Positions 9,326-63,121 of a DNA stretch of 64,000 nucleotides are shown in pieces. The DNA is from a virus, in the IMG/VR virus record IMGVR_UViG_3300051212_000550. One strand, given 5' to 3'. The stretch's first letter is position 1. Every line of letters starts with the position of its first letter. The notes below the pieces were generated by a model. It was not told where the DNA came from, made no database searches, and saw only the letters and a program-made list of their open reading frames with translations. The position numbers and the translations under genes were made by a program.

Positions 9326-10123
9326 TTATTTGCCTACGTTAACAAAACCTTTGAAGTCGTATGGAACAACAATTGCATTGACTTTGCCATTCTTGATGCC
9401 TTCGGCAATGTCTGCTTGTGCTCGAGCCTGCATGTAAGCAATACTCTGTGTGCCCTGATTGGCCAATGCCTGCATACGGCGAGCTTCTGCTTCAGCAGTC
9501 TTTACTTCAACTTCTTTCTGCTTAAGTTCGTTCTTAGCGCGAACAAGAGCGTTTGCACTTTCAACGACACTGTCTGCAGGAACAACGTTACGGATCAGTA
9601 CTTGACTGATGGTAATTGATCCATCAAGTTTTTCTTCAGCAAGGTTACGCTGGATTTCTTCTTGGATCATCTTTTCCATGTCGCTACGATTGTCTGCCAT
9701 GTCCAGTGCTTCGTATTTACGAGCTGCCTTGTAGATAGCATTACGAGCATTTTGAACAACGTAGTTATACATTACGAATGTATCACCTTTGAACTCTGCA
9801 TGGAAAGCTTTGTTCTTGGTGCTGTACAACTCTGCTACAGCCTGAGGATTGATGTTGTAGACAACTACTGCATCAAGATCTTTCATGGTGCTGTTATCTT
9901 TAGCCACAGGAGTCATGTCATTAAGTGTAACATTAACATCCTTAACTGGGAATGTAAGAACATCACCAACGATAGTCTGATTAAAACTACCTGGCAGCAG
10001 TTCTCCGGGTTGGACCTGCTTATCAAAACCAACTCGTACACCAACCTCACCGGTTTCAATACGAGTGCAGCCTGTGGCAAGAATTGCCGCGGCGAGAATA
10101 GAGAGAGTTGCGATGCGTTTCAT
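9326..10123 (-). CDS. SPFH/band-7 (prohibitin/HflC-like) lipoprotein
   Basis: lipobox LATGC; SPFH-like core and a long coiled coil (AEAEARRMQALANQG). Confidence 0.7.
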   Translation of the reverse strand: MKRIATLSILAAAILATGCTRIETGEVGVRVGFDKQVQPGELLPGSFNQTIVGDVLTFPVKDVNVTLNDMTPVAKDNSTMKDLDAVVVYNINPQAVAELYSTKNKAFHAEFKGDTFVMYNYVVQNARNAIYKAARKYEALDMADNRSDMEKMIQEEIQRNLAEEKLDGSITISQVLIRNVVPADSVVESANALVRAKNELKQKEVEVKTAEAEARRMQALANQGTQSIAYMQARAQADIAEGIKNGKVNAIVVPYDFKGFVNVGK

Positions 10124-12246: not shown

Positions 12247-12723
12247 TTATTCTCCCTTGTGATCTTTGGTTAATTCACACATTAACATAAAATGCTCGTA
12301 GGCTTTACGAACGGCTTCGTTCTGCATTAGCCTGTTGGCTTCTTCCATCATCGCTTTAACACCGGCTTCTGCACAGTCGTGAATGCTTAATCCGTGAAGA
12401 GTAGTGATCTCATCTCCAAACGCTTGAGCTAAGGCGTTCCATGCAGATTTTTGTTCTGGAGTTAATGGTGTTCGTTGCGGACGTAGTTCGGAAGCTTTTG
12501 AAATAGCACGACAGATAGCATCTTCTGCTACACGACCAGCGGCAATCATGGCCGCATAATTAGGTTCGATATTGAATCTACGACTCTGGCCTCCAGGGTA
12601 ACACATCACAAGATGGTTACCTTTTGGAAAGCTGTCTAAATATTCATTGTCATACTCCGCTACAGGAACATAGCGGCGACCGACTTTTTTATATAATAGG
12701 TTGGATGATTTGGAAGATGTCAT
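12247..12723 (-). CDS. hypothetical protein
   Basis: ORF track. Confidence 0.5.
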   Translation of the reverse strand: MTSSKSSNLLYKKVGRRYVPVAEYDNEYLDSFPKGNHLVMCYPGGQSRRFNIEPNYAAMIAAGRVAEDAICRAISKASELRPQRTPLTPEQKSAWNALAQAFGDEITTLHGLSIHDCAEAGVKAMMEEANRLMQNEAVRKAYEHFMLMCELTKDHKGE

Positions 12724-13504
12724 GTGTGTCTGGGTCTAAAACTTTTTCATCAACGATGTGATTGTACATGACTTCTTTGACTTTGTCAATACGATGAGAC
12801 TTATTTTTAGCACCTAATACGATGACCACATAAGTCTTATTAAACTTTTCAACTACCATCGCTACGCACCATCCTGCAGGATTGGTAAAACCTGTTTTGG
12901 ACACAACGACAGTATCAAATTCAAAAAGTATAGGACTGTTAGTATTGTGTAGTTCTATTTTTCTTATTTTCTTTTTATATCTGGTTTCAAATAGAGCCTG
13001 TTTCTTAATACTGATTTCTTTTATTTTTGGATACTTATGAGCAGCGATCATCATCAATGATAGATCATTAATTGTTGAAACATTCTTTCGACTCAATCCT
13101 GTAGGATCATCGAAATTAGTATTTTGCATACCTAACGATTTAGCCTTTTGATTCATATCGTGCAAGAATGCTTTTCTACCTCCAGGATAATTCCTAGACA
13201 GTACTTCGGCAGCACCATTATCACTGCGAACCAGCATGGCCGTTAGAATCTGCTCTCTCGTATAATCTTTTTTAGGCAACAGCCCAGTGCCCGTCTTGAT
13301 AATCTCAGATAGGTCTTTATATTGATCTAGCATAACCATGGCAGTCATTACTTTGGTAATGCTGGCAATTGGACGAACTTCTGTGAGATCATTACCTAAC
13401 ATGATTTTATCATCCGTGTGATTATAAAGATAGGAGTTTGTTTGGCCTGCAGAACAAACTCCTGTAAACAGAGTTAGTAATATAGTTATTAAATGTCTAC
13501 GCAT
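12689..13504 (-). CDS. secreted serine-type D-Ala-D-Ala carboxypeptidase/endopeptidase (PBP5/PBP7-like, peptidase S11)
   Basis: signal peptide; SxxK (SITK), SDN (RSDNGAAE), KTG (SKTGFT). Confidence 0.75.
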   Translation of the reverse strand: MRRHLITILLTLFTGVCSAGQTNSYLYNHTDDKIMLGNDLTEVRPIASITKVMTAMVMLDQYKDLSEIIKTGTGLLPKKDYTREQILTAMLVRSDNGAAEVLSRNYPGGRKAFLHDMNQKAKSLGMQNTNFDDPTGLSRKNVSTINDLSLMMIAAHKYPKIKEISIKKQALFETRYKKKIRKIELHNTNSPILFEFDTVVVSKTGFTNPAGWCVAMVVEKFNKTYVVIVLGAKNKSHRIDKVKEVMYNHIVDEKVLDPDTHDIFQIIQPII

Positions 13505-20341: not shown

Positions 20342-21037
20342 TTAGTTTATTTCTGGGAATAAACAATGCTCAATAAACACTTTTACATCATCCTCATTTA
20401 AACCTAAGCTGGTCATAACACGTGGTGTATGTGGATTTTGTTTTTGATTCTGAGCATAGAAATTCTGCTCAACCGTGGCGTCTGCTACCTTGTTGTTAGT
20501 TTCGCCCACAGTTTCTAAATAATGATTAACAAGGATACGTGCTAGGCTTTCAATCTGATTAAGTTCGTCATCCTCTTGAACATTACCGGCTGCGACCATA
20601 TGCGGACTAAAGATACGTTGTGCCCACTCGGGTAATTCTCGTTTGCGTATCCATTCGTATCTAGATACTTCCTCGGCGAAATATTTTATCATAGGATGTT
20701 CACGATCTGTAGTGGGACTATAGTCTATGAAACATCCGGTAATTTTGTTTTTACCTGCTATGACATCAAAACCAAAAATAGGTGCCGGGTTATGGATATG
20801 TGGAAAGACACAGCAATGCATCATCCAGAGGCCCTTTGTGGATCGGGCATCGACTACATCGATATGGGCTCTGCGATAATTACCGCTGGTCCAAACACGA
20901 TTAACCCAACCCGGCTGATTGAATCTTTCCATTCCAGGTTCAAAAGTTTCTATTCCAGTATTGGAAAAACTTTTTTCAAGTAGTTCTTGAATACCAATGA
21001 GTTTATACCAAACTTTACTGTTCAATGTTTTGTCCAT
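20342..21037 (-). CDS. ferredoxin-dependent bilin reductase (PcyA/PebS/PcyX family)
   Basis: FDBR-family similarity by recognition; two residues downstream of heme oxygenase in the same operon. Confidence 0.7.
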   Translation of the reverse strand: MDKTLNSKVWYKLIGIQELLEKSFSNTGIETFEPGMERFNQPGWVNRVWTSGNYRRAHIDVVDARSTKGLWMMHCCVFPHIHNPAPIFGFDVIAGKNKITGCFIDYSPTTDREHPMIKYFAEEVSRYEWIRKRELPEWAQRIFSPHMVAAGNVQEDDELNQIESLARILVNHYLETVGETNNKVADATVEQNFYAQNQKQNPHTPRVMTSLGLNEDDVKVFIEHCLFPEIN

Positions 21038-21509
21038 TTTCGTCTACCTCTACCCAGGTATAATCACCCAACCACTTTACTCTAGTTATGTAATTATAAT
21101 CGTCCGGTGATCCTGTGCTCCAGTCATCGGGTCCGTGCTGAGTCAACAGTGTATGATTTTTTCTTGTGTTATAAACTAACCAATAACACTGACCGTGAGC
21201 TATTTGAAATTGATAAACTGCGGAGTGTACCATATCAGTTATATCAAGACGTCGTTTAATACTTGCTGCCTGCTTTTGTAAAACAGCAACCAGTTCCATG
21301 ATCCTGTTATATTCTTGTTGCCCGTGCATACGAGCAACATTGACCATAATGTCCTTTTGTTTTTCTACAGGAATTAAATCAAAAACAGGGCCTCCTACTT
21401 CTGTGGGATACGGAGTTACATTGCGATTGATAAACTGGACTAAAGAATCACCTATCTGAGAATCGAAGCTATCTTTTCCTTTTGAAAGATTACTCTTCTG
21501 ATCCTTCAT
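21015..21509 (-). CDS. hypothetical protein between HO and bilin reductase
   Basis: ORF track. Confidence 0.5.
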   Translation of the reverse strand: MKDQKSNLSKGKDSFDSQIGDSLVQFINRNVTPYPTEVGGPVFDLIPVEKQKDIMVNVARMHGQQEYNRIMELVAVLQKQAASIKRRLDITDMVHSAVYQFQIAHGQCYWLVYNTRKNHTLLTQHGPDDWSTGSPDDYNYITRVKWLGDYTWVEVDENGQNIEQ

Positions 21510-22044
21510 ATAATTCTTTCATCATTTTAATCGCCCACTCAAATGCTACTCTAGCCTCATCTCCTAAGTCGTCAGTTAGCTCAGAACGAATAGAAACTTT
21601 AAGGTCTTCCGGATTCTTAAAATCGTAGAAGCGACCTTTCGAAATATGTGCTACCTGCTTCTTGATGATCTGTCCACCATGTAAGTCTCCCATATGACGA
21701 CAATAAAGATGTGCTTTGATCTTAGGACGTTGTGTAGGATCGCGGACTAAACCTAACAGATAATTGTAGTATTCTATCGTTTCTGGTAACCACTTGTAAT
21801 TATGATCCACTCCTGCTATCTCAATAAAGTCTTGATAGATAGCGTGTGTTCTTTCTAAGCCGGGAAGATTTTTAAAATTGCCTTCTACTCGATTACCTAA
21901 TTCAATTGCATTATATACCAATACTAATTGATAAAGATAATTTGCATAGTCTTCTTTAGTAATCTTACCGCTAAGAAGCAATTTGGCGAATTGTGTTTTT
22001 TCTGCCTCGTGATGTAGGTCTTTGGTAATTTCTTTTAAACTCAT
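21490..22044 (-). CDS. heme oxygenase (HO-1 family)
   Basis: proximal His region HHEAEKTQF and YCRHMGDLHGGQ (canonical Y-x-R-Y-x-GDLSGGQ). Confidence 0.8.
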   Translation of the reverse strand: MSLKEITKDLHHEAEKTQFAKLLLSGKITKEDYANYLYQLVLVYNAIELGNRVEGNFKNLPGLERTHAIYQDFIEIAGVDHNYKWLPETIEYYNYLLGLVRDPTQRPKIKAHLYCRHMGDLHGGQIIKKQVAHISKGRFYDFKNPEDLKVSIRSELTDDLGDEARVAFEWAIKMMKELYEGSEE

Positions 22045-22054
22045 AGTTTTTTAT

Positions 22055-22312
22055 TTACTTAGGCCCATATCTCAATAACATCATCGTGGCATCTATTTCT
22101 TTATCTAGTTTAATGCAGAACGAATGAATAGTTTTTTCATATTGCCAACGTTCACCGACTGGTCCTAATATTTCTGTAAAAAAATTAATAAAGTTTTTTC
22201 TTCCTTTTTTACCAAGATTATATCTTCTAAGGTCGTGAAAAATTATCCAAAAAGAAAACCGACCAGTTTCTACATTCATATATCGTATGAACTTAAACTC
22301 GTCGGCTGTCAT
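22055..22312 (-). CDS. small protein, divergent WC..LKW family member (ERWQYEK...EIDATMMLLRYG)
   Basis: C-terminal motif shared with the 0.1-4.1 kb array. Confidence 0.45.
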   Translation of the reverse strand: MTADEFKFIRYMNVETGRFSFWIIFHDLRRYNLGKKGRKNFINFFTEILGPVGERWQYEKTIHSFCIKLDKEIDATMMLLRYGPK

Positions 22313-25192: not shown

Positions 25193-26212
25193 TTATCTCA
25201 CGAATACATCATTAAATTGCTTATTGACTCGAATAAATGTTGTACATTTTGATAGTTGTTTAAGACTTGGCGCTCCAACGTATGTGCAAGAGCTGCGTAA
25301 TCCACCCAAAATATCCAAAATTGTATCCTTAATAGGACCGCGATATGGAACTTGAACTGTTCTTCCTTCGCTACTACGATATTCTGCTACACCACCATGA
25401 TGTTTATTCATAGCAGTATCTGAACTCATTCCGTAGAATGTAATTTTTCCATCTTTAATTTCTCCGCCCCCTTCATCGTGTCCTGCTAGCATACCGCCTA
25501 GCATTACAAAGTCAGCTCCCGCGCCAAACGCTTTGGCAACATCACCAGGACAAGTACATCCACCGTCAGCAATAATATGACCGCCAAGACCGTGAGCGGC
25601 GTCGGCACATTCAATAATAGCACTAAGCTGTGGGTACCCAACACCAGTTTGAATACGAGTAGTACAAACACTACCAGGACCAATCCCAACTTTAACAATA
25701 TCCGCACCACGTAAAATTAACTCCTGTGTCATGTCCGCAGTAACAACATTGCCTGCGATGATTGTTTTATCTGGATAGGTCGTTCTAACTTTAGAAACAA
25801 ATTCTCCAAAATGTTCACTGTATCCGTTGGCTACATCGATACAAATAAAATGTATTCTCGGATAAGAATTGATTGTTTGCCTTAGTTTTAAAAAATCTTT
25901 ATCACTAGTGCCAGTGCTGACAGCAAAATAATCACTGCCAATATCTTCTATAGTCGTCTGTAGATATAATGTATCAATGTTCTTAACTAAACAGGTAAAC
26001 ATTCGGTGCTGATACAATTCAATGGCCATATGTAATGTACCAACACCGTCCATGTTCGATGCCATGATCGGAACACCCGACCATTCGAATTTACTGTGTT
26101 TAAATTTATATGTCCGGGTTAGGTCTACTTCTTTACGACTTGATAATGTGCTACGCTTAGGACGGATTAAGACATCTTTAAAATCTAACTTAACTTCGTC
26201 TTCGATTCTCAT
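25193..26212 (-). CDS. guaC: GMP reductase
   Basis: N-terminus [23 protein letters not shown] close to E. coli GuaC; no CBS insert. Confidence 0.85.
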
Positions 26213-36625: not shown

Positions 36626-36995
36626 TGGGTGAGAAGGTATAGTTACCCCCGACTTGCAGTTTCTTAGGCTGCTAGTGCAACACGACCACCAACGGTGTTA
36701 CCGTTGAAGCTCATTGCTGCGAAGTCAAATGCATCATCGTTTGCATTTATAGTTTTGCTTGATTTACGGTCATCGCCTACCGTGTTGCCGTCTCTACTAT
36801 CTACCCCTGTCGAAACCATAACTGGCCCATTAGGGAGAACACTACTTGCTATGCCGGCCACTATCACTTACCGCGGAGTTGTGCGCCTTCCAGCTCCTTC
36901 TGCAATGTTCTCTCTGGTGGACCAGGCGGGAGTCGAACCCGCGTCCAGAAGTCCTTCGCTTTGAAGGGATTACAACAATTCTTTATTCGTAAGGT
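36626..36995 (-). ncRNA. ssrA: circularly permuted (two-piece) tmRNA gene, ssrA
   Basis: upstream piece ends GGACGCGGGUUCGACUCCCGCCUGGUCCACCA (E. coli tmRNA 3' end differs at only 5 positions); 86 nt downstream the 5' acceptor strand GGGCCAG (G3.U70 Ala identity, A73) is followed by UUAUGGUUUCGACAGGGG (tmRNA D-analog UUCGAC); resume codon GCA at 36744 opens the tag frame ANDDAFDFAAMSFNGNTVGGRVALAA-UAA (to 36664); a terminator follows. The 5' boundary is approximate. Confidence 0.75.
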
Positions 36996-37193
36996 TTTAA
37001 AAAGTCGTCGTCTTTTGAATCTTCTTCAAACTTAGTCCAATCATAGGTTACCAAGGCATGAATCCATGCACCGATACAATAGACAAGTAAAAGTAATATT
37101 AAAAAGCCACCCATGTTAATGTAACAACAATAATGATCACAACAATTAAAAATCCAACTAGAAATCTGGTTAAGTCGTCATTTATAAAAGTAT

Positions 37194-43359: not shown

Positions 43360-43785
43360 TTATGGCAGGCTGCGACCTTTCCATATTATGTTTGAATCCT
43401 GCTGGGGAATTTCATGTATCTTTAAACTTCTCTTGTATTCAAAATTTAAAACATCAGACTGGTCCACAATTAAGAAAAATTTAGGATCTTTTTCATTGGG
43501 GAGCATAGACATATGTATCTCACAATGAGTGTCCATAAACCGCTGTGTTAACTTCAGAGTATACAGCATTCCTAAGGTTATTGCAAGATCATCGTATTTT
43601 CCTTCCAAAATTAAATGCCAAGGATCGGGCCATTCGGAGGGATTTTGTGTGTTAAGATAAGGATTAACAAAAGGAGCCAAAGACCAAAATTCAGCAACAT
43701 CCTGTAAAGGTGTGTTACTGACTTCTAACGCATCTCTAAATTCTCTCCAAATTTTAATCCTATCGTCGCGATAGAGATTAAACAC
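43360..43785 (-). CDS. hypothetical protein
   Basis: ORF track. Confidence 0.5.
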   Translation of the reverse strand: MFNLYRDDRIKIWREFRDALEVSNTPLQDVAEFWSLAPFVNPYLNTQNPSEWPDPWHLILEGKYDDLAITLGMLYTLKLTQRFMDTHCEIHMSMLPNEKDPKFFLIVDQSDVLNFEYKRSLKIHEIPQQDSNIIWKGRSLP

Positions 43786-45313
43786 CGTATGTTACAAAGT
43801 AAGAGATTTGGCCAGTGGCTTGATTGGCGATCGGATTTTTATACCATAACTGAATAGTATCTAATCCTGAATCAAGATTATTGTCAAGAACGTTCGTTCC
43901 AAATTCAAAACCTGTCATAGCCGTTGCTCCTGATGTGTAGTTAAATTCGTCAGTTAATGATATAACACTGGGGCTTATTGCGTCAACGATTAATCTTAAA
44001 ATTCCTCGTCTAACTCCAGTGCCAAGTGTTAGCGTATAATCAATTTCTATAAATTTATTGAAACTAGAAAATACCGCTAGTGTTCGTTGTCCGTCTGAGG
44101 TAAAGATGTCAGTTACAACATTATTGACTATGTTGGTTCTTGCACCATTAAGAACTTCTGGCCATCCTGCTTTAGCTGCTGATGACGATACTCCGGCTTC
44201 TTGAGTCCTATCAAAATAACAATCTGTTACAATATTATTCTTTGTTTGAACAAAAGAAATAACTGGTGCTATAGGTGTAGCAGCATTGTTAAGACCATTG
44301 GCACAGATTAAAAATCTACTGCTTTCAATAGACATGTCGTTTCCGTTTGTAACATGAATAGCCTGATTGAAAATCAATTCAAAATGACAATTCTTCACAG
44401 TCCACTGATTGCTTTGATTAGCCTGTCCTTGTAAGTAGATTCCCTTACCACAGAGATAGAAATTACAATTATCAAAATTAACATGAGTAGTTAATGCAGA
44501 AGAATATATTGCTGATACTGCAATATAGCTCTTAGTAAAATTACAATTTGAAAAAGTTATGTCGGTTACTTTAGTTCCATCGATATCATTTGACCACGAC
44601 ACTGCTGATGTTTCTGTGCTGTTGCCCAACGCATAAGTTGATTCAAAAATAATATTATTAAATTTTGCATTTCTTAATCCAGTTAAATTCAATAGACCAG
44701 ATGTAAAATACATTTTTAAATTTGATATAGATACATTTTCAGGACGATCAGAGGACGTAAATGATCCTATATTCGTACCAAGGAAAGATTTAAAAGTAAC
44801 TGTGCTAGCATTGAACAGCAATGTAGTTGCTGATGCATTTTCTCCTACAATTACAGTATTAGATGGAATTCTAAGTGTTGTTGATAGAAGATAGTTACCG
44901 GCTGGTATCAATAAAGCTTTTCTAAAATTTACATTAGCATTTTGAAATAAGTCATCTAATGCTTTCTGGAATGCCGGAGAATCATTTGTAGTTCCATCTC
45001 CTTTAGCACCATAATCTAAAACGCTGACATATTCGTCTAATTTAGATTGTAGTGATCTAGAAATACTTTGTGTGATACTAGGATCATTAGAACCAAAACG
45101 ATAAGCCCTAGTAAGGTCTAGAATATTATCGTATTCGGTAAGAATTTTAGTATTGCCGACTAAAGGAGCGCCTTCAGTAACACTGCCGTTACCAATATAT
45201 AATTCTTGCGTGTCAACGGCCCAGGCAAATTCACCACCACTTAATTGCGGAATACCTGTTTGTAACTTTTTTCCTTTACGGACTTGTATTTTGCTTATTT
45301 GGACTACGGCCAT
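43778..45313 (-). CDS. right-handed beta-helix (pectate-lyase-fold) protein, candidate tail fibre/spike or depolymerase
   Basis: LDYGAKGDGTTNDSPAFQKAL is typical of the pectate lyase 3 / GH28 N-terminus. Confidence 0.65.
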   Translation of the reverse strand: MAVVQISKIQVRKGKKLQTGIPQLSGGEFAWAVDTQELYIGNGSVTEGAPLVGNTKILTEYDNILDLTRAYRFGSNDPSITQSISRSLQSKLDEYVSVLDYGAKGDGTTNDSPAFQKALDDLFQNANVNFRKALLIPAGNYLLSTTLRIPSNTVIVGENASATTLLFNASTVTFKSFLGTNIGSFTSSDRPENVSISNLKMYFTSGLLNLTGLRNAKFNNIIFESTYALGNSTETSAVSWSNDIDGTKVTDITFSNCNFTKSYIAVSAIYSSALTTHVNFDNCNFYLCGKGIYLQGQANQSNQWTVKNCHFELIFNQAIHVTNGNDMSIESSRFLICANGLNNAATPIAPVISFVQTKNNIVTDCYFDRTQEAGVSSSAAKAGWPEVLNGARTNIVNNVVTDIFTSDGQRTLAVFSSFNKFIEIDYTLTLGTGVRRGILRLIVDAISPSVISLTDEFNYTSGATAMTGFEFGTNVLDNNLDSGLDTIQLWYKNPIANQATGQISYFVTYGV

Positions 45314-46450: not shown

Positions 46451-46827
46451 CCTAGTTGTGCCAATTGTTTTTGTAAATCAGAAATCTCAGCTTGCTTTTC
46501 TTTGATAGCATCCTGTATCTGTTTCTTTTGATCGTCGTGATCTTTCTTAGCCTGAGCTGCCTGCGCAGGGTCCATCTGTCCACCTGCCATTCCTGCTTGC
46601 CCAGCTGCTTGAGTTGTTTTCTGGGCCGCACTCTGAAAACCCTGTTTGGCCGCTTGACCAAGGCGGCTTACACCTCTTACCACAGCGCCACCGGCTGCCT
46701 GGGCACCCCTTGCTGCTAGTTGACCTGCACCGGCTGCAACACGACCAACACCTGCTGCTACCGCACCTAATACCGGCAGTATTTCATCTAGCTGTTGGTC
46801 ATTCTCTTTTAGGTCTTTGAGTCTCAT
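46447..46827 (-). CDS. Ala/Gly/Gln-rich low-complexity protein
   Basis: ORF track; compositional bias creates alternative-frame ORFs. Confidence 0.5.
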   Translation of the reverse strand: MRLKDLKENDQQLDEILPVLGAVAAGVGRVAAGAGQLAARGAQAAGGAVVRGVSRLGQAAKQGFQSAAQKTTQAAGQAGMAGGQMDPAQAAQAKKDHDDQKKQIQDAIKEKQAEISDLQKQLAQLG

Positions 46828-47768
46828 TAGCCTGCCAATGCCTTTAATAAACGGCTTTGATAGTTAATGCTTTCACGCTGTTCACGGCCTGCTGTTTCAG
46901 CACCACCGGCTGCTGGTTCAGCTGCTGCAAAATCATCTTCTGGAGCATTCATCATGTCAGGTTCTGCTGCATCGACCTCTGGCTCTTCAAAGCCTGGAGG
47001 AGCTTCATCTGCACCAGCTTCTGTACCACCTAACATTTCTGCAGGTTGTACTTCACCAGTTAGGGCTCTTACGCCTGTGCTCATTGTTTCTCTAGCTTGC
47101 TTTAGTGTATCTAAAGCTGACTGGATCGCAGGAGCAACTTGGCTTAAAAATGCTTTAGCCTGTTCTTGACCCATTTCATCACGGATACTATCACCTAGAG
47201 ATAATAGTGTATCATTTTCGATACCGGCTAATTCTTCAATCCATCTGCTGACCTTGTCAACCATTCCTTTAGCTGAAACAACAGCAGATGCTTTGTTTAG
47301 TTCGTTTTCATTTACTTGAGTGTTCATACTTTCTCCAATTTGGCTTTCTTGTGTAAAATCATATCCATCGTAGATCCCAAATGACTCGTCGCTGTCATCG
47401 GCAGCTTGATCATCGCTGTAACCTAATTCATCAACAACTTGTTCATTTGATTCTACTTCATCTGTATGAATCCCCTGAAACATTGCTGCCGGATCTTCGT
47501 CAACTATTTCAGATTCAGTACGCTCTGCAATCTCTTGGTTGATGATGTCCAACATCCATTGTGTCTTTTGATGATCTTCATTTTCTACGGTTTCATTAAA
47601 TGTGCTGTCGCTGCGCATTTGATGAACCTTAGTTCTTAGTCTATTTCTTGCATCTTCTAACTGAGGCAAGGTAAAAGCTTCAAGATTGAGCTTCTTTCCA
47701 TAAGTTTTTTCAAAGCTCTCGTTCAGCTTTTTTACCGAGGGCCTAGTAAAAATATCAAGTGTTTTCAT
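46827..47768 (-). CDS. highly acidic protein (scaffold / internal-protein-like)
   Basis: ORF track; D/E-rich. Confidence 0.5.
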   Translation of the reverse strand: MKTLDIFTRPSVKKLNESFEKTYGKKLNLEAFTLPQLEDARNRLRTKVHQMRSDSTFNETVENEDHQKTQWMLDIINQEIAERTESEIVDEDPAAMFQGIHTDEVESNEQVVDELGYSDDQAADDSDESFGIYDGYDFTQESQIGESMNTQVNENELNKASAVVSAKGMVDKVSRWIEELAGIENDTLLSLGDSIRDEMGQEQAKAFLSQVAPAIQSALDTLKQARETMSTGVRALTGEVQPAEMLGGTEAGADEAPPGFEEPEVDAAEPDMMNAPEDDFAAAEPAAGGAETAGREQRESINYQSRLLKALAG

Positions 47769-51602: not shown

Positions 51603-51630
51603 AAGCCCCCGGAAGGGGGCTTTCTGTTAT
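51603..51630. terminator. bidirectional intrinsic terminator (AGCCCCC-ggaa-GGGGGCU) between convergent genes
   Basis: seen directly. Confidence 0.8.
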
Positions 51631-52328
51631 CTAACTTTGGCTAATTTAAAAAACTGTAGGATCTTGATATACATCCAGCCTATATCAAATTCCCATTTGC
51701 GTTGACGGAAGTCAGCTGATGCGCCATTGGCGTGATGGTTGTTATGTAGTTCTTCGCCGCCGATCCAGAATGCCCATGGCCAAAGATTACGACTAGTATC
51801 TTTAGTATCTGTATTGCGGTAACCCCACCAGTGGCAAAGACCGTTAACTACTCCTGCTGCCCAAAATGGAATCCACAGCATCTGAACACCCCAGACCACA
51901 AATCCCACAGGGCCAAAAAGAACAAGATCTATGATCAACATTAAAAGAATCCCTAGGCGACTGTGCGGAGTGTATAACTTTTCTTCAATCCAATCGTCGG
52001 GAGTTCCAACACCCAATTCTTGAATTAGTATTTTGTTTTTTGCTGCTTTTGCATACAAGAACGCACCACCAAATAGCACACGCCAAATACCATAGACCTG
52101 AGGGCTATGTGGATCTTTTTCTGTATCTGATGCTTGGTGATGTTTACGATGTATAGCTACCCATTCTCGAGTAACCATTCCTGTTGTAAGCCATAACCAA
52201 AAACGCATGAAGTGTGCGACTATAGGATGGAATTGAACTGCGCGATGTGCTTGGCTACGATGTAGATAAAGTGTAACGCAAGCGATAGTGATTTGTACCA
52301 TCACCAAGGTATAGATGATTATTAACAT
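51627..52328 (-). CDS. membrane fatty-acid desaturase (DesC/delta-9-like; His boxes HRSQAH, HRKHH, HNNHH)
   Basis: three His-box motifs. Confidence 0.7.
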   Translation of the reverse strand: MLIIIYTLVMVQITIACVTLYLHRSQAHRAVQFHPIVAHFMRFWLWLTTGMVTREWVAIHRKHHQASDTEKDPHSPQVYGIWRVLFGGAFLYAKAAKNKILIQELGVGTPDDWIEEKLYTPHSRLGILLMLIIDLVLFGPVGFVVWGVQMLWIPFWAAGVVNGLCHWWGYRNTDTKDTSRNLWPWAFWIGGEELHNNHHANGASADFRQRKWEFDIGWMYIKILQFFKLAKVR

Positions 52329-52984
52329 TAATAGTTCCCTGAGGCTAGAACTATTTTACAGATGTGTTCTAAACGCTCAATGTGCTCGAAGGATCTCCAA
52401 GGTGTAGAATCTATAGCAACAACTCCATGTCCTTTAATGCCTACGATATCGTACTTAATCTCTCCGGTTTTAGAATTTAAACCCAACTTTTCGTGACATT
52501 GATCTCCCAATTCTTGACTTATTGGGGGGACATCGCCCACATTAGGTGCTACACGAGTATATCTGCTAAGTTCTGGAAAGTGACTAGCCAATTCTGAAAG
52601 CTCTATACCGGCATGCATAGCTGCTACAATATAAGTGGGATGAATATGTGTTACTACACGTACTTCGTCTTTATGTATTTCTCGCTGTAGACCAAAATGC
52701 AGAGGCATTTCACCTGTAGGTTTAAGCCCTACACTTATATCACTATAGGGCATTTCTTCCCATCCATAAATCATTTCTGCTGTACCAGCACCACTATTAA
52801 TAGCTCTATTGATTTTGATTTTTTTAAATTGATCGGGTTGTAAAGTTTGCTTACGAACCCCCGACGGAGTTACATAAAAATGATCTCTATCGTGATGACG
52901 AATAGAGATATTACCATCCCTGCTGGTAATCCAATTACGATTGTAAGCTTCGACTAAAATATCACAAATTGTTTCTAACATCAA
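52328..52984 (-). CDS. class II aldolase/adducin-domain protein (FucA/AraD-like)
   Basis: motifs GNISIRH and HIHPTY. Confidence 0.65.
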   Translation of the reverse strand: MMLETICDILVEAYNRNWITSRDGNISIRHHDRDHFYVTPSGVRKQTLQPDQFKKIKINRAINSGAGTAEMIYGWEEMPYSDISVGLKPTGEMPLHFGLQREIHKDEVRVVTHIHPTYIVAAMHAGIELSELASHFPELSRYTRVAPNVGDVPPISQELGDQCHEKLGLNSKTGEIKYDIVGIKGHGVVAIDSTPWRSFEHIERLEHICKIVLASGNY

Positions 52985-57478: not shown

Positions 57479-57997
57479 TTATTTCTTAGCAGTCTTGGCA
57501 GCATCCTTCCATGCTTGATCGGTAGGTGCTTTAGGATGATTTTTATCTCTGCTGGTACCTGCTTTCTTACGTTTATTTACGTAGTAGTAAAGACCTTTTT
57601 TTGTCGCTTCGTGCATTCCGAAGTTACCTTGCATACGAACTTGTTCTATATCATTTTTTTCAGCATAAGTATCAACCATCATAGCTAACTGAAAGTCCAA
57701 TATTGTTAATCCCTTTACATCGAATGTAGAAGTTTTAACAGTCACTTCAGCAACATCTTGTGTAACTTCTGCAAAATGATCCATCTTTTCAGATAATCGA
57801 TTTATAAACTCTACGAATTTGACAGCGTGTCTATGATCTTTAGCAACATATTTGGCCTGTAGATACTTATGATCTAACATTTCCCAATCTGGCAAATACT
57901 CTGATTTTAAATCGTCAAGGTCTTTATCTGAAGGTACGAAATCTTCTATATCTTTTGATCTAAATTTGCCTTCGATTATTATTTCTTTGACTCTCAT
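57479..57997 (-). CDS. hypothetical basic protein
   Basis: ORF track. Confidence 0.5.
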   Translation of the reverse strand: MRVKEIIIEGKFRSKDIEDFVPSDKDLDDLKSEYLPDWEMLDHKYLQAKYVAKDHRHAVKFVEFINRLSEKMDHFAEVTQDVAEVTVKTSTFDVKGLTILDFQLAMMVDTYAEKNDIEQVRMQGNFGMHEATKKGLYYYVNKRKKAGTSRDKNHPKAPTDQAWKDAAKTAKK

Positions 57998-58419
57998 TGT
58001 GTGCGATCCTTATTATCAACGGCACCGCCGGTAACCCAGGATGTGCAACTGCGATCTCCTGCGCATTTAAAATGATGAAAATTACAGTATCCCAAATCTG
58101 CTTTATGTATTGTGGCCATAGCATCAGTTTCTTTGCTGTCGCCTTTGATTCCATCTTCGATACACTGCCACATCTTATCCGAAACATCAAAAGCTGCACA
58201 GTTTCCGCACTGCATAGTCTTGGCAGTCTTTTCTGTAATACCCCAACGCTTGGCTGCATCCTTCCAATATGATTCCGGCTCATCTGGATTAGCAGGACCA
58301 TAGTGATATTCGTCTATGGCCTTCTGGCGGTTTTTTAAGTTAACATCAATATCATATGTGGCAATAGGACAGCCTTTGTTAGCTGCTTCTACGATATTAA
58401 TATATTTTCTGTAGGTCAT
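57994..58419 (-). CDS. hypothetical Cys-containing protein
   Basis: ORF track. Confidence 0.5.
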   Translation of the reverse strand: MTYRKYINIVEAANKGCPIATYDIDVNLKNRQKAIDEYHYGPANPDEPESYWKDAAKRWGITEKTAKTMQCGNCAAFDVSDKMWQCIEDGIKGDSKETDAMATIHKADLGYCNFHHFKCAGDRSCTSWVTGGAVDNKDRTQ

Positions 58420-59729
58420 AGTTCATCCCATCCTATAGCCCAGCATTGGCTGGTTATATTGGTAGTAGTCGTTACAGCAATAACAAATTCGTAGTTTACT
58501 CCTGTAAATGTATTACGTTCTAATTGGAACTTAAAAGGAAATCCTGTCAACGACGGTGCTACACTGGCTTGATTTGTAGCTATAACATAGCCTTCGTCAA
58601 TGATCCTACCATTAGTATAACTGGTGGGAGTTAGATTATATTCTACAGAAGATGTTGCGCCAGTATCTGACCATTCACCACCTGTAGTAATAGCCTGCTG
58701 TATAATAAAGTACTGATAGTTAGCTGATGTTAAAGGAGCAAAACTGAAGTTAGTTGGTATGACTACAGCATTGTCTCTGCCTGCTTTTAATCTAATGCTC
58801 AGCATAGGAACTGCTGTGTTGACCTGTGCTTGGTTGGTGGATCTTGGAGTAACCAAAGAGTGACCTATAGCTCTAGCACGACCTGCGAGTTCGTAACCGC
58901 CTTCAGATATCACAGACTGACAGATAAACTTTAGTGTGTCACTGACTCCTGTAGCACTAGTGTTTTCTATTTCGTAGCGTAGAGGCAATCTTGCCGTGCC
59001 CATGTAGGTAGTAGTTAGTCCTGCTGTGTTAGCGTGATCCCATCTATGGCAGGGAATAAATTGCCCGTTTATAACAAAGCCCATAGTAGCTGAGCCTACA
59101 CCTAACCATTCTATATTAGTGTACAATATCTGTGATGTTGCTAAATCTAATACGATCTTATCCGCATCTGTGCCATCTAGTTTACTAATGTTCCAATCTG
59201 ATTTGGCAATACGAGTTGTTTGTAAACTACCACTTGAACTGCTTCTACGCACAAAATAAACGTCTAGTCCGTCTTGTTCTAGATAAAAACCGTTGGCTGA
59301 ATCAAAGTATCCTACACGCTGTCTTAGTCCTGCGCGGGCCGGTGCCATACAAAAAGTTTCTAACACCAACAAACTCTTGCCTGGTTGATAGGCAAATACT
59401 CTTGTGCTTTCTCTGTAGACCTTACTGCCATTGGTACCATCTACTGTCATTGCTAGGGCACTACTGTTGGTATTGTGTAGTGTGCTTCCGCCACTGGCTG
59501 TAAAGTTTACAAATCCATCAACATTGTCGTAGTACTTACTAGAGTTATCAAATAGTGTAAATGGATCACTGGTCCTAAAACGACCAAATGCATCAGTGGC
59601 TGTAGGGCCTAGAGTAGTTCTTAAAATAGGACGACCTAGGACATCATACTGCATTACCTTATGTAAATTTAACAGATTGGGTTCGTCTGCATGTACATAA
59701 TTGGTAGAATTTTTATTACGAACGCCCAT
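58416..59729 (-). CDS. 437-aa beta-rich virion structural protein candidate
   Basis: ORF track; composition typical of jelly-roll/fibre proteins. Confidence 0.45.
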   Translation of the reverse strand: MGVRNKNSTNYVHADEPNLLNLHKVMQYDVLGRPILRTTLGPTATDAFGRFRTSDPFTLFDNSSKYYDNVDGFVNFTASGGSTLHNTNSSALAMTVDGTNGSKVYRESTRVFAYQPGKSLLVLETFCMAPARAGLRQRVGYFDSANGFYLEQDGLDVYFVRRSSSSGSLQTTRIAKSDWNISKLDGTDADKIVLDLATSQILYTNIEWLGVGSATMGFVINGQFIPCHRWDHANTAGLTTTYMGTARLPLRYEIENTSATGVSDTLKFICQSVISEGGYELAGRARAIGHSLVTPRSTNQAQVNTAVPMLSIRLKAGRDNAVVIPTNFSFAPLTSANYQYFIIQQAITTGGEWSDTGATSSVEYNLTPTSYTNGRIIDEGYVIATNQASVAPSLTGFPFKFQLERNTFTGVNYEFVIAVTTTTNITSQCWAIGWDEL

Positions 59730-59732
59730 TTA

Positions 59733-60149
59733 TCAGTTCCAAGGACGACCTAATTGAAGGCCATCAACGTTAGCATTATCTACTACATCATTTCCAGAAT
59801 ACAGAGTAGGAAGTTCTGTAGAATCTAATGTATATCTTCTACCATCTAATTGTCTTTTAATTGCTGCTAACGCTAGTTTTGCTTCTTGTTTGGCCTGCTT
59901 GGTAGATAGATTAGCAATCTTGTTGCCTGTATAGATTACTGCTCCTGTCGGAATAGCATAGAACGCTAAAGTTTTTGTGGTATCTAATAACGTTCCGTTA
60001 TAAAATAAATCAAACCAATCTACACCAAACCCTTTAGCAGTTTCGATATCTGATTTTAACGTGCCAACGGTTATGGTATCATCTTTGGTATAGCTATCAA
60101 AGATCCCTGCATTGACTAAGCTCTGCACAGAAATAGTAATGTTAGCCAT
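59733..60149 (-). CDS. hypothetical protein
   Basis: ORF track. Confidence 0.5.
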   Translation of the reverse strand: MANITISVQSLVNAGIFDSYTKDDTITVGTLKSDIETAKGFGVDWFDLFYNGTLLDTTKTLAFYAIPTGAVIYTGNKIANLSTKQAKQEAKLALAAIKRQLDGRRYTLDSTELPTLYSGNDVVDNANVDGLQLGRPWN

Positions 60150-60400: not shown

Positions 60401-60443
60401 TTGGGTTCTCCGATCTAATATTTAGCGGTTAAATACGCTTACT

Positions 60444-61634
60444 ATGATCAACAAAGAACCATTCAAACATCTAATCAAAGACCTCAAAGATACAGGAAAA
60501 TACCGTGTGTTTAACGATATTGTGCGTGAGCGAGGGCAATTTCCTAAAGCTATTTGGTACGGACCTTATAATATTAAAACTATAGTTAATTGGTGTTCAA
60601 ACGATTATTTGGGAATGGGACAAAATAAAGTAGTCCTTGATGCTATGCACACAGCATTAGATCAAACTGGTGCGGGATCAGGCGGCACCCGTAACATTGG
60701 TGGTACCAGTCATTATCACGTAGCATTAGAACACGAGCTTGCTATGCTGCATAACAAGAGCAAAGCACTGTTGTTCAGCAGCGCCTATGTTGCTAACGAA
60801 TGGACTATTATCGCTCTAAGTAAAATCATAGACAATATACAGTTTATTTCGGACAGTAAAAATCATAACAGTCTGATTGTTGGTATACAACATTCGAAGG
60901 CACCAAAGCAGATATTCGAACACAATAATTTAAATGATCTAGAAGATAAACTAGCACAGAGCAAACTTGCAGGATTTACTCCTTGCATAGTTTTTGAATC
61001 AGTTTACAGTATGGATGGTGATGTTAGCCCAATTAAAGATATCTGTGATCTCGCAGATCGTTATCAGGCAATAACATACATTGACGAAGTACATGCGGTA
61101 GGGCTCTACGGGACGCACGGTGGCGGAAAAGTAGAAGAATTTGGTTTAGAATCCCGAGTTGATATAATCAACGGTACGTTAGGGAAAGCCTTTGGAGTCC
61201 AAGGTGGCTATGTTGCTGCCGATGCTGATGTTGTTGATGCCATCCGTTCTGTAGCTGCTGGCTTTATCTTTACAACATCAATGAGTCCTGTGGCCTGTGC
61301 TGGAGCACTGGCTGCGGTTAAATGGCTTAAAGATCACAACGAAGTTCGGGTCAAGCATCAAGAACGTGCTGCTAAACTAAAGCAACTATTAAAAGAAAAT
61401 GAGCTGCCTGTTATGGACAGCTCAACTCATATAGTTCCAGTTCTAGTAGGGGATGCTAAGAGATGTAAATCAATGAGTGACAAACTGTTAGAGGATCACA
61501 ACATCTATGTACAACCAATTAACTATCCTACTGTTGACGTAGGTACTGAGCGGTTGCGCTTTGCTCCTACTCCATACCATGATGACTCTATGATGAGCAA
61601 TTTAATATCTGCTCTCAAGGACGTTTTTCAATGA
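60444..61634 (+). CDS. hemA: 5-aminolevulinate synthase (glycine + succinyl-CoA, C4 pathway)
   Basis: [47 protein letters not shown] and PLP-Lys [12 protein letters not shown] match ALAS rather than BioF/Kbl. Confidence 0.75.
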
Positions 61635-62205
61635 TCTTGTCAACAAGTCCGTAGTCTAGAGCTTCTTGTGCGCTCATAAACTTATCACGTTCCATATCAC
61701 GAGCAAACTCATCATAGGTCTTGCCTTTGCTGTTATGCTTGACATAGATCTCAGTAAGATACTTTTTCATCTTTAGTATCTCTTCTGCTTGGATCTGGAT
61801 GTCTGTGGCCTGTCCACGAGCACCGCCACTGGGTTGATGGATCATATGGCGAGCATTAGGCAACATGAAACGTTTGCCTGCTGCTCCTGACTGTGCTAAT
61901 AGACTGCCCATGCTACAGGCCTGACCCATTACATAGGTGGCGATATCACACTTAACGAACTGCATAACATCATAGATAGCCATACCTGCTGTCACTACTC
62001 CGCCGGGGCTGTTGATAAACAGATTGATATCCTTCTTGGGATCTTCGGACTCTAGGAACAATATCTGAGCCACAATTAAATTACTCATCATGTCTTCCAC
62101 AGGACCATTTAACATGACAATACGTTCTTTGAGTAGACGACTGTAAATGTCATAGGCACGTTCGCCCTTGCTTGTGGATTCAACTACTACTGGTACTAGA
62201 CTCAT
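61615..62205 (-). CDS. clpP: ATP-dependent Clp protease proteolytic subunit
   Basis: Ser GQACSMGS, His HQPSGG; start moved to MSLVPVV, which aligns with the mature ClpP N-terminus. Confidence 0.9.
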
Positions 62206-63121
62206 TCTTCTTCCTTTTCTTGAATTGTTCAACTTGATTACCGATCCAATTGATTACGTTTACTTTAGGTTCGTAACCCAATTGTTTTAATTTGGTTATG
62301 TCCGCAAAGGTTAAACGCACCTGTCCAATCCTATCCGGAACCTTAACCTGCTTATTACTGACAACGTCAGCAATTTCTTTAACACTGGTCGATGTTCCTG
62401 AACCAATGTTATAGATCTCATCACGCATACCCTTTTCTATTATAAGCTCTAATGCTTGAACAGCATCAGATGCATGTACAAAGTCTCTGCGTTGATCTCC
62501 ATCACCATGTATAAACAAAGGTTGATCATCAACCAATGCTTTCATGTAACGAGGAATCATTAATGCCCTGTCACCATAGTCCATATATGCCCCATACATG
62601 GTAAATGGTCTAACAATTATCAGTTCCGTTATCCAAGCCTTTTGGCTCTGCACACGCAACGCCCATTCAGCTGCTAGTTTACTAACTGCATATGGACTGC
62701 TGGGATTCAGTGCGCCATCTTCAGTTTGGGCTTCTTGTCCATTGTTGCCATACACAGAGCTAGAACTGATGTAGATAAACTTTTTGATATTGTATTCTTG
62801 ACATAGCTGAAAGAACTTGTGTGTATCTGCTATGTTAGTTTTATAATAACTTTGATATTCTAACCAACTGGGATCTATCCTAGCACGATTGGCACAATGT
62901 ATCACAACATCAACTTTATCCAATAGGGCTGCATAGACAAATAGATCATTGTAGAGATCTGCTTTGGCTATTTCGATATTTGGGTCTAGGGGTTCTAGTT
63001 GAAAGTTAGTCCATTCTCCTGGATCTTGATCAACTAACACAAGATCATACTTGTCTTTTAGATAGTGAGTTATGTTCCTACCCAAAAAGCCAGCTGCTCC
63101 TGTAACTAAAATGCGTTTCAT
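62180..63121 (-). CDS. NAD-dependent epimerase/dehydratase (SDR family)
   Basis: GAAGFLG Rossmann motif; catalytic YAVSK. Confidence 0.8.

Follow-up and report, generated by a model that had tools for sequence, protein, structure and literature searches.

A predicted 5-aminolevulinate synthase gene of a large freshwater-type tailed phage and the conserved element upstream of it

Assignment of valaS to the 5-aminolevulinate synthases

The virus record IMGVR_UViG_3300051212_000550 of IMG/VR, of which a stretch of 64,000 nucleotides was analysed as a whole (referred to as the window), contains a gene predicted to encode a viral 5-aminolevulinate synthase (ALAS; gene valaS, protein vAlaS). Its coordinates and strand in the open reading frame (ORF) listing are the same as in an earlier interpretation of this DNA, the sequence-only reading, which had proposed a phage-borne ALAS completing a route from glycine to bilins. 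The gene is among the few plus-strand genes, nearly all other genes of the window being located on the minus strand.

60444..61634, plus strand: valaS, predicted coding sequence of the viral 5-aminolevulinate synthase, 396 amino acids, ATG start, TGA stop

The only Pfam match of the protein is the generic PF00155 domain, which, like the pyridoxal phosphate (PLP) lysine, is common to all alpha-oxoamine synthases, and the gene could thus be a mislabelled Kbl, BioF or serine palmitoyltransferase. However, the NCBIfam ALAS equivalog model TIGR01821 reached 570.3 bits, far over its curated cutoff of 338.55 and above all paralogue models, whereas the Kbl models NF005394 (318 versus a cutoff of 460) and TIGR01822 (252 versus 493), the BioF model TIGR00858 (316 versus 426) and each of three serine palmitoyltransferase models stayed under their own cutoffs. 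The top five matches among solved structures were all ALAS and full-length (7x98, 1e-127; the R. capsulatus enzyme 2bwn, 8e-126; then human and yeast), while the best Kbl structure matched with 1e-58. Identity of the window protein was 53.5% to R. capsulatus ALAS over 381 residues, 32.8% to Kbl and 29.9% to BioF; for these comparisons, residues 10-393 of the R. capsulatus enzyme were reconstructed from the structure-match alignment, and the annotated Kbl of Salmonella and BioF of E. coli served as outgroups. We also checked the phylogenetic placement relative to BioF and Kbl in a neighbour-joining (distance) tree of 140 sequences, which comprised the window protein, 17 viral copies, representatives of 50%-identity clusters with at least 380 amino acids, R. 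capsulatus ALAS, Kbl and BioF. The window protein groups with ALAS, and in 99 of 100 bootstraps a split separates it and the R. capsulatus enzyme from Kbl and BioF.

The catalytic and specificity residues are consistent with this placement. Alignment against ALAS, BioF and Kbl located the PLP Schiff-base lysine of the window protein at K248 and revealed conservation (in R. capsulatus numbering, which is consistent with the printed 2bwn alignment) of R21, N54, T83, R84, N85, I86, H142, K156, E185, S189, D214, H217, T245, K248, T278, T365 and R374, with a conservative change to Thr at the position of S277. Window residues R21, T82, N84 and K155 align with the succinyl-CoA-contacting R21, T83, N85 and K156, and both glycine-carboxylate positions are kept (window R372 for R374 and N53 for N54); the contacts to PLP, to the succinyl carboxylate and CoA and to the glycine carboxylate are those described for the 2BWN structure. 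At the positions of T83, N85 and K156, Kbl carries V, F and R and BioF carries S, H and L. Of the 16 catalytic or specificity residues that were checked, 15 do not vary among 80 viral copies; the exception, S277, is a Thr in 79 of them and remains Ser in the other. The sub-cutoff models, the ALAS-type residues T83, N85 and K156 and the bootstrap values rule out a Kbl, BioF or serine palmitoyltransferase identity, and we consider the chance of such a mislabelling to be negligible. The sequence-only reading had pointed to the ALAS signatures and the PLP lysine and is borne out in this respect; we conclude that valaS is predicted to be a 5-aminolevulinate synthase with a security that is as high as sequence analysis permits.

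Cyclizing ALAS enzymes exist as well, and a Streptomyces-type enzyme of this kind, which would turn ALA-CoA into the C5N unit (2-amino-3-hydroxycyclopent-2-enone) of a secondary metabolite, is a close ALAS homologue that would match the ALAS models too. Against this possibility, which we regard as very improbable, neither the vicinity of valaS nor the rest of the window contains a partner gene for an acyl-CoA ligase or an amide synthetase, the neighbours are structural genes and ClpP, and the top structure 7x98 is a normal ALAS. The latter was itself suspected to be a Streptomyces cyclizing ALAS, but is described in the literature as an ordinary ALAS used for the production of 5-aminolevulinate.

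The R. capsulatus enzyme (AlaS/HemA; PDB 2BWN/2BWO/2BWP) has the same length, architecture and substrate and PLP residues as the window protein, but differs in possessing the heme ligands His342 and Cys400. At 53% identity along the whole length, its crystal structure is sufficient to fix the fold of the window protein. The corresponding residues of C. crescentus ALAS, His340 and Cys398, ligate heme, which leads to release of PLP (PMC6154995). In the window protein the first of these positions is occupied by R340, and the C-terminus ends two residues short of the position of Cys400. None of the 80 viral copies has a His at the former position, and 72 of them lack a Cys within the last 12 residues. 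Since the His/Cys ligands are missing, the enzyme probably escapes heme shut-off through this mechanism; such an escape is a reasonable reading of the sequence, while a wider heme insensitivity would go beyond it.

Phage context, viral relatives and the heme-to-bilin genes

The window is 91% coding with 106 ORFs, mostly in the same orientation, and the immediate surroundings of valaS include a virion structural gene and a protease gene.

58416..59729, minus strand: virion structural protein, 437 amino acids, phrog_1645 (E = 8.8e-101), two genes upstream of valaS
61615..62232, minus strand: ClpP protease, convergent with valaS, the 3' ends overlapping by 20 bp

The 437-residue protein is 47% identical to virion structural proteins of T4-like cyanophages and of Puniceispirillum phage HMO-2011. 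Further phage genes encode a baseplate-hub/tail-lysozyme-like protein, a second virion structural protein, an endolysin, a beta-helix tail-fibre-like protein with an Mtd_N domain, both ribonucleotide reductase (RNR) subunits, an exonuclease and an ATPase with weak clamp-loader similarity. Scanning IMG/VR with six close-relative peptide patterns for each query (ALAS and the two heme-to-bilin enzymes described below), we found at least 90 stretches that encode close relatives of vAlaS (67-93% identity) on contigs of up to 280 kb. The related loci share a recurrent gene order, p141 - p437 - (ubiquitin-like ORF) - p83 - ALAS (plus) - ClpP (minus) - [epimerase] - HNH (plus), in which the ALAS strand is always opposite to that of its neighbours, and viral contigs from many samples, dozens in number, have valaS in this syntenic position. 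An identical protein with the same gene neighbourhood is encoded on two short contigs from metagenomes, and JGI 3300043448 and SRR35185181 are samples in which the identical gene is present. The structural, tail, baseplate and lysis genes and the syntenic viral contigs thus uphold the earlier view that the gene is phage-borne.

Relative to the window copy, pairwise dN/dS ratios are 0.03-0.05 for the closest pairs, in which dS is unsaturated, with a median of 0.06 over 30 pairs. The GC content of valaS (0.407) and that of its third codon positions (GC3, 0.327) match the means of all ORFs (0.393 and 0.325). From these values we conclude that valaS is a long-standing resident under purifying selection and neither a recent capture nor a relic.

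In a full HMMER scan of 1.84 billion cluster representatives, a single viral 50%-identity cluster scored 753 bits, followed at 465 bits by representatives with 52-55% identity, which include eukaryotic mitochondrial-type ALAS (Amoebozoa transcriptomes, EukProt) and proteins of bacterial length. The viral ALAS clade is monophyletic in 100 of 100 neighbour-joining bootstraps. When one genome per GTDB species was scanned, the best identity among the matches listed was 58%, all of them alphaproteobacterial ALAS from Caulobacterales, Hyphomicrobiales, Parvibaculales, Rhodospirillales, Sphingomonadales and others, and no mis-binned phage contig was among them. Taking the matches listed in both scans, the viral clade is about as far from eukaryotic ALAS as from each of many alphaproteobacterial orders (52-58% identity), and it appears to be without a cellular donor lineage that could be named. 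These data also bear on the possibility that valaS represents alphaproteobacterial host DNA which was mis-assembled or mis-binned, or a very recent and functionless transfer. In favour of such an origin, the published viral clade includes one sequence from a 'Rhodobacteraceae' bin and one phage genome deposited as 'Marinovum sp.' (PMC11480375). However, many samples have yielded independent viral contigs, dozens in all, with valaS at the same syntenic position; no cellular genome exceeds 58% identity among the matches listed; valaS does not depart from the phage averages in GC or GC3; the viral copies show a dN/dS of about 0.05 among themselves; and a phage-type upstream element is conserved. 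All of this makes such an origin highly improbable.

Searches of 50,697 GenBank phage records yielded no megablast match for the region of 58-64 kb, and a tblastn search with the vAlaS protein found only Kbl- or BioF-like proteins with at most 34% identity, many of them in contaminated records, which means that no isolated phage among these records carries valaS. The family itself has been described: Wegner et al. 2024 (Nat Commun 15:8783, PMC11480375) found valaS on contigs of both marine and freshwater phages, where it occurs by itself or together with hemO and pcyA/X as a cassette or 'broken cassette'; the viral AlaS sequences cluster apart from bacterial ones and in many cases do not have the H342/C400 heme site. 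They demonstrated that the vAlaS of CB_2, a 527-kb Crystal Bog phage with Methylocystis as predicted host, complements E. coli ST18 and forms 5-aminolevulinate in lysate, while a K250A mutant is inactive (PMC11480375). CB_2 vAlaS is about 61% identical to the window protein over the 217 residues of a partial alignment and belongs to a different viral subclade; as in the window phage, vhemO and vpcyA co-occur with it as a 'broken cassette' and the heme-feedback site is missing (PMC11480375). In other partial alignments, identity was about 64% with a copy from a marine phage and about 53% with Caulobacter.

The closest published sequences are those of Lake Grosse Fuchskuhle. According to Dataset 1, these uncultivated virus genomes (UViGs) are 179-325 kb long, have a GC content of 40.7-41.7% and carry the three genes without a cassette (PMC11480375); the window has a GC content of about 39-41%, and HemO, bilin reductase and AlaS are dispersed in both. 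In the published alignment, their vAlaS proteins (GROS21-1_SAMEA9560546_UViG_0116, ..._0823_UViG_0011 and others) start with the N-terminus M(TM)INKEPF..., as does the window protein, and two of them are about 81% identical to it over the first 168 residues, i.e. the N-terminal 40%. The window sequence nevertheless differs from them, and its exact DNA is absent from the supplement portion searched and from the GenBank phage records. A fatty acid desaturase, the gene family by which Wegner et al. first encountered valaS scaffolds (PMC11480375), is also encoded in the window (51627-52328).

Two further enzymes of tetrapyrrole metabolism are predicted in a minus-strand cluster at a distance of 38 kb from valaS, namely a heme oxygenase (HO) and a ferredoxin-dependent bilin reductase (FDBR), which confirms the earlier observation that both are encoded on the same genome as the ALAS.

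21490..22044, minus strand: hemO, heme oxygenase, 184 amino acids, PF01126 (1.5e-22)
21015..21509, minus strand: DUF2452-family ORF between hemO and the FDBR gene, overlapping both, 164 amino acids, PF10504 (2.6e-6)
20342..21037, minus strand: ferredoxin-dependent bilin reductase (PcyA/PcyX-like), 231 amino acids, PF05996 (6.8e-16)

The DUF2452 ORF may be a third, uncharacterised member of this heme-to-bilin module. The closest isolated relative of the FDBR (47% identity) belongs to Pelagibacter phage Mosig EXVC030M, in which the FDBR gene also adjoins an HO gene; unlike the window phage, Mosig and the other GenBank phage records have no ALAS. The only cellular three-gene cassette cited by Wegner et al. 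is the hemO-pcyA-alaS island of Bradyrhizobium sp. ORS278 (PMC11480375), which combines the same three functions on a single replicon, but is cellular, tight and linked to a phytochrome gene, whereas the window genes are dispersed over 38 kb and no phytochrome gene was found in the window. Being phage-encoded, clustering with viral sequences and co-occurring with hemO and an FDBR gene, the window valaS shares the features of the vAlaS clade and is a further member of a published, experimentally supported family, the phenomenon being known since 2024.

This also qualifies the rarity that had been emphasized in the sequence-only reading. ALAS is indeed rarer in phages than FDBR, with 0 versus 25 of the 50,697 GenBank phage records and about 90 versus about 400 matching stretches in IMG/VR (HO: 32), but the novelty implied by it does not hold, since viral ALAS was published in 2024 (PMC11480375). 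Several large contigs (214-400 kb) appeared in the FDBR match list and not in the ALAS list; either valaS is missing from some members of the lineage, or the peptide patterns fail to catch copies that have diverged too far.

Regarding the neighbours of valaS, ClpP is encoded at a distance of up to 4 kb in most related loci, and adjacency is what links it to valaS. In mitochondria, ClpX acts on ALAS and facilitates PLP loading (PMC8892079); the adjacency of clpP and valaS may, however, be coincidental synteny. With DnaK, Hsp20, a transfer-messenger RNA (tmRNA) and ClpP, the phage encodes a sizeable proteostasis set. The Cys-rich ORF of 141 amino acids at 57994-58419 (minus strand) matches no family of Pfam or PHROG; its identity in most related loci amounts to 85-93%, a conservation higher than that of the neighbouring structural protein (31-39%) and about equal to that of ALAS. 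The ORF of 138 amino acids at 59733-60149 (minus strand) has a borderline match to the ubiquitin family PF00240 (E = 1.5e-5, 25.1 bits versus a gathering threshold of 25.4), and 30-50% identity is kept in related loci.

The element upstream of valaS

The gene valaS and the minus-strand gene p83 are divergently oriented and separated by a gap of 43 nt, which contains an inverted repeat and in which no Shine-Dalgarno (SD) sequence was found.

60419..60435, no strand assigned: inverted repeat TATTTA-GCGGT-TAAATA in the 43-nt gap between p83 (minus strand) and valaS (plus strand)

Each half of the repeat reads TAAATA towards one of the flanking genes. Comparing 59 distinct upstream regions of the lineage, we found the full inverted repeat kept in 50 although the flanks have diverged, TAAATA ending 4-8 nt before the ATG, and an SD-like tetramer in only one. 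The hexamer is not restricted to this locus. In the 45-nt sense-strand regions upstream of the window genes, TAAATA is the top hexamer with 19 occurrences, versus 3 for its reverse complement, and these 19 are part of 42 occurrences in the whole window. It is located 21-24 nt before the tail-fibre-like gene (43778-45313, minus strand) and a virion structural gene (46827-47768, minus strand), and 1-8 nt before hemO, valaS and six other genes. Two spacing classes can be distinguished, one with TAAATA 18-24 nt before the start, which leaves room for an SD sequence, and one with 1-8 nt and no SD sequence; the latter class suggests that several genes are leaderless or have a short leader.

The motif resembles the T4-like late promoter 5'-TATAAAT-3' that was used for the annotation of phage Melnitz (PMC9004378). 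The full T4 octamer TATAAATA occurs only twice in the window, scans of 20 ORFs against PHROGs revealed no late transcription factor of the gp55 or gp33 type in the window, which is part of a genome, and a scan for sigma-70 promoters and terminators around valaS yielded nothing above the shuffled expectation. We infer that the inverted repeat is a putative pair of divergent T4-late-like promoter boxes, and valaS may be translated from a leaderless or very-short-leader mRNA. Alternatively, the inverted repeat could be an operator for a dimeric regulator.

If the boxes are promoters, the one upstream of hemO becomes relevant for a possible co-regulation with valaS. It lies in the region of 22051-22057 (minus strand) and ends 7 nt before the hemO ATG. 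Such a near-start position was observed only in the closest relatives, i.e. at 4 of 24 distinct loci, while a box anywhere in the last 25 nt before hemO is present at 8 of the 24; at the other loci hemO lies inside an operon with a normal SD sequence. Because the near-start box is limited to the closest relatives, a co-regulation of valaS and hemO is weakly supported. At four loci (L255, L258, L259 and L260), a perfect hairpin, CCTCCTAAG-TAAATAtg-CTTAGGAGG, carries TAAATA in its loop and is followed by a T-run; it precedes hemO by about 25 nt (at around 2975-3000 in the numbering of each locus), and this arrangement looks like a combined terminator and promoter module.

Host indications and proposed function

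The sequence-only reading had combined the ALAS gene with an alphaproteobacterial-type tmRNA to propose an alphaproteobacterial host. The tmRNA is indeed permuted, but the rest of this argument was not supported.

about 36664-37028, minus strand: permuted (two-piece) tmRNA, predicted by ARAGORN; Rfam beta_tmRNA 145.9 bits (gathering threshold 84)

Within the Rfam tmRNA clan the best model is beta_tmRNA and not alpha_tmRNA, and the clan-less model tmRNA_permuted matched as well. The tag predicted by ARAGORN is unusually long and ends in ...VALAA. Melnitz, a T4-like myophage related to the pelagimyophages, carries a two-piece tmRNA of the alphaproteobacterial type, although its host is OM43, a beta/gammaproteobacterium (PMC9004378, Buchholz et al. 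2022); this mismatch makes the tmRNA type an unreliable host marker in these phages. Unlike the ssrA of Melnitz, the window tmRNA has no glutamine riboswitch beside it at Rfam gathering thresholds, and in a blastn search against phages only its generic tRNA-like part was matched. The best isolated-phage relatives diverge as well, pointing to a pelagiphage for the FDBR, to cyanophages and the Puniceispirillum phage for the structural protein, and to Xanthomonas and Ralstonia phages for RNR. The viral ALAS clade, being equidistant from many orders, does not single out a host either, and the predicted hosts of published valaS phages are both alphaproteobacterial and gammaproteobacterial (PMC11480375). 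Taken together, an alphaproteobacterial host is neither favoured nor disfavoured by this evidence.

The window also contains a tRNA gene.

8387-8462, minus strand: tRNA with CUA anticodon, designated 'Pyl' by ARAGORN; Rfam tRNA 62 bits, encoded CCA end

Such a tRNA would read the amber codon UAG. The 106 ORFs end with TAA in 67, TGA in 36 and TAG in 3 cases, and there is no sign of TAG recoding through this tRNA in the window, which is 91% coding under the standard code and has no split genes. Host-like or auxiliary genes apart from those of tetrapyrrole metabolism comprise the fatty acid desaturase, a class II aldolase, a pterin-4a-carbinolamine dehydratase, a GMP reductase/IMPDH-family protein, a D-Ala-D-Ala carboxypeptidase and an SPFH/Band 7 protein; these genes are located on the minus strand in the regions 51627-52984, 57479-57997, 25193-26212, 12689-13504 and 9326-10123.

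Regarding the function of valaS, the model scores, the conserved residues and the viral synteny argue that it very probably encodes a functional vAlaS (EC 2.3.1.37) and represents an auxiliary metabolic gene of a large freshwater-type tailed phage. The enzyme would be a homodimeric PLP enzyme of fold type I, in which glycine is bound as an external aldimine on the K248-linked PLP and condensed with succinyl-CoA, and decarboxylation of the intermediate would yield 5-aminolevulinate, CoA and CO2. During infection, vAlaS would supply the committed tetrapyrrole precursor from two central metabolites, independently of the host's control of 5-aminolevulinate synthesis and, in case the host uses the C5 pathway, also independently of glutamyl-tRNA. 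Host enzymes from HemB to HemH would then convert 5-aminolevulinate to heme, which the phage HO would open to biliverdin and iron, and the phage FDBR would reduce biliverdin to a bilin. Heme insensitivity, expression timing, the coupling of flux to HO and FDBR and the benefit to the phage are parts of this scheme that we infer.

Several points weigh against this scheme. Enzymatic activity is known for a homologue with an identity of only about 61% to the window protein, and what connects valaS with HO and FDBR is their co-occurrence on the same genomes. The His/Cys heme motif is missing from most alphaproteobacterial ALAS too (PMC6154995), and its absence is for this reason neither a viral specialisation nor a proof of heme insensitivity. 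Moreover, heme inhibition of another ALAS has been tied to other Cys residues (PMC9951541), and the window protein has a conserved C341.

The completion of a glycine-to-bilin route, as proposed in the sequence-only reading, overstates what the phage encodes, although ALAS, HO and FDBR are all present. The genes are 38 kb apart, and none of the about seven enzymes leading from 5-aminolevulinate to heme was found in the window, in which all ORFs of at least 200 amino acids were Pfam-scanned for other heme-pathway enzymes; the intermediate steps consequently need host enzymes. A role of valaS in generally maintaining the heme and further tetrapyrrole cofactors of the infected cell (for respiration, cytochromes and B12 enzymes), with HO and FDBR serving separate purposes such as iron release or a bilin signal, accepts the ALAS assignment and denies a dedicated pathway from glycine to bilin. 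This role is favoured by Wegner et al., who termed the role of HO and FDBR 'enigmatic' (PMC11480375), and it agrees with the distances between the genes, i.e. 38 kb in the window and 30-70 kb on five other IMG/VR contigs (76-107 kb) that carry ALAS and FDBR, ALAS being located directly beside FDBR and HO in only 1 of 80 related loci (the distant L080). In addition, viral stretches matching the FDBR query outnumbered those matching the ALAS query about fourfold. On the other hand, all contigs of at least 16 kb in Dataset 1 hold the three genes, which form a tight cassette on many marine contigs (PMC11480375), and in the window a TAAATA box is located 7-8 nt before the ATG of both valaS and hemO. 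We give cofactor upkeep somewhat less than an even chance, and put forward any functional link between ALAS and HO/FDBR as a hypothesis.

A more specific extension of the vAlaS reading combines the upstream element with the host. If valaS were transcribed from a divergent late-like TAAATA promoter, translated in a leaderless or nearly leaderless manner, and active in a non-alphaproteobacterial host with the C5 pathway, it would open, late in infection, an entry into tetrapyrrole synthesis that is foreign to the host, independent of glutamyl-tRNA and insensitive to heme. Such a host comes into consideration because of the beta-type tmRNA and the GC content of about 39-41%, but we judge the combination as a whole to be unlikely. 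The idea of a C5-pathway host was already hypothesised by Wegner et al., while a (near-)leaderless mode of valaS expression was not raised there.

With respect to the family, neither the ALAS gene nor the tmRNA type of a phage suffices to name its host. The freshwater clade emerges from the analysis as a large group with strong conservation and a fixed genomic position, represented on at least 90 IMG/VR contigs and by metagenomic homologues that number in the thousands. Viral alaS genes imply, as was pointed out in 2024, that phages can seize the entry point of tetrapyrrole synthesis, beyond the heme-to-bilin steps known from cyanophages, and the conserved upstream element without a ribosome-binding site offers a handle on when and how valaS would be expressed.

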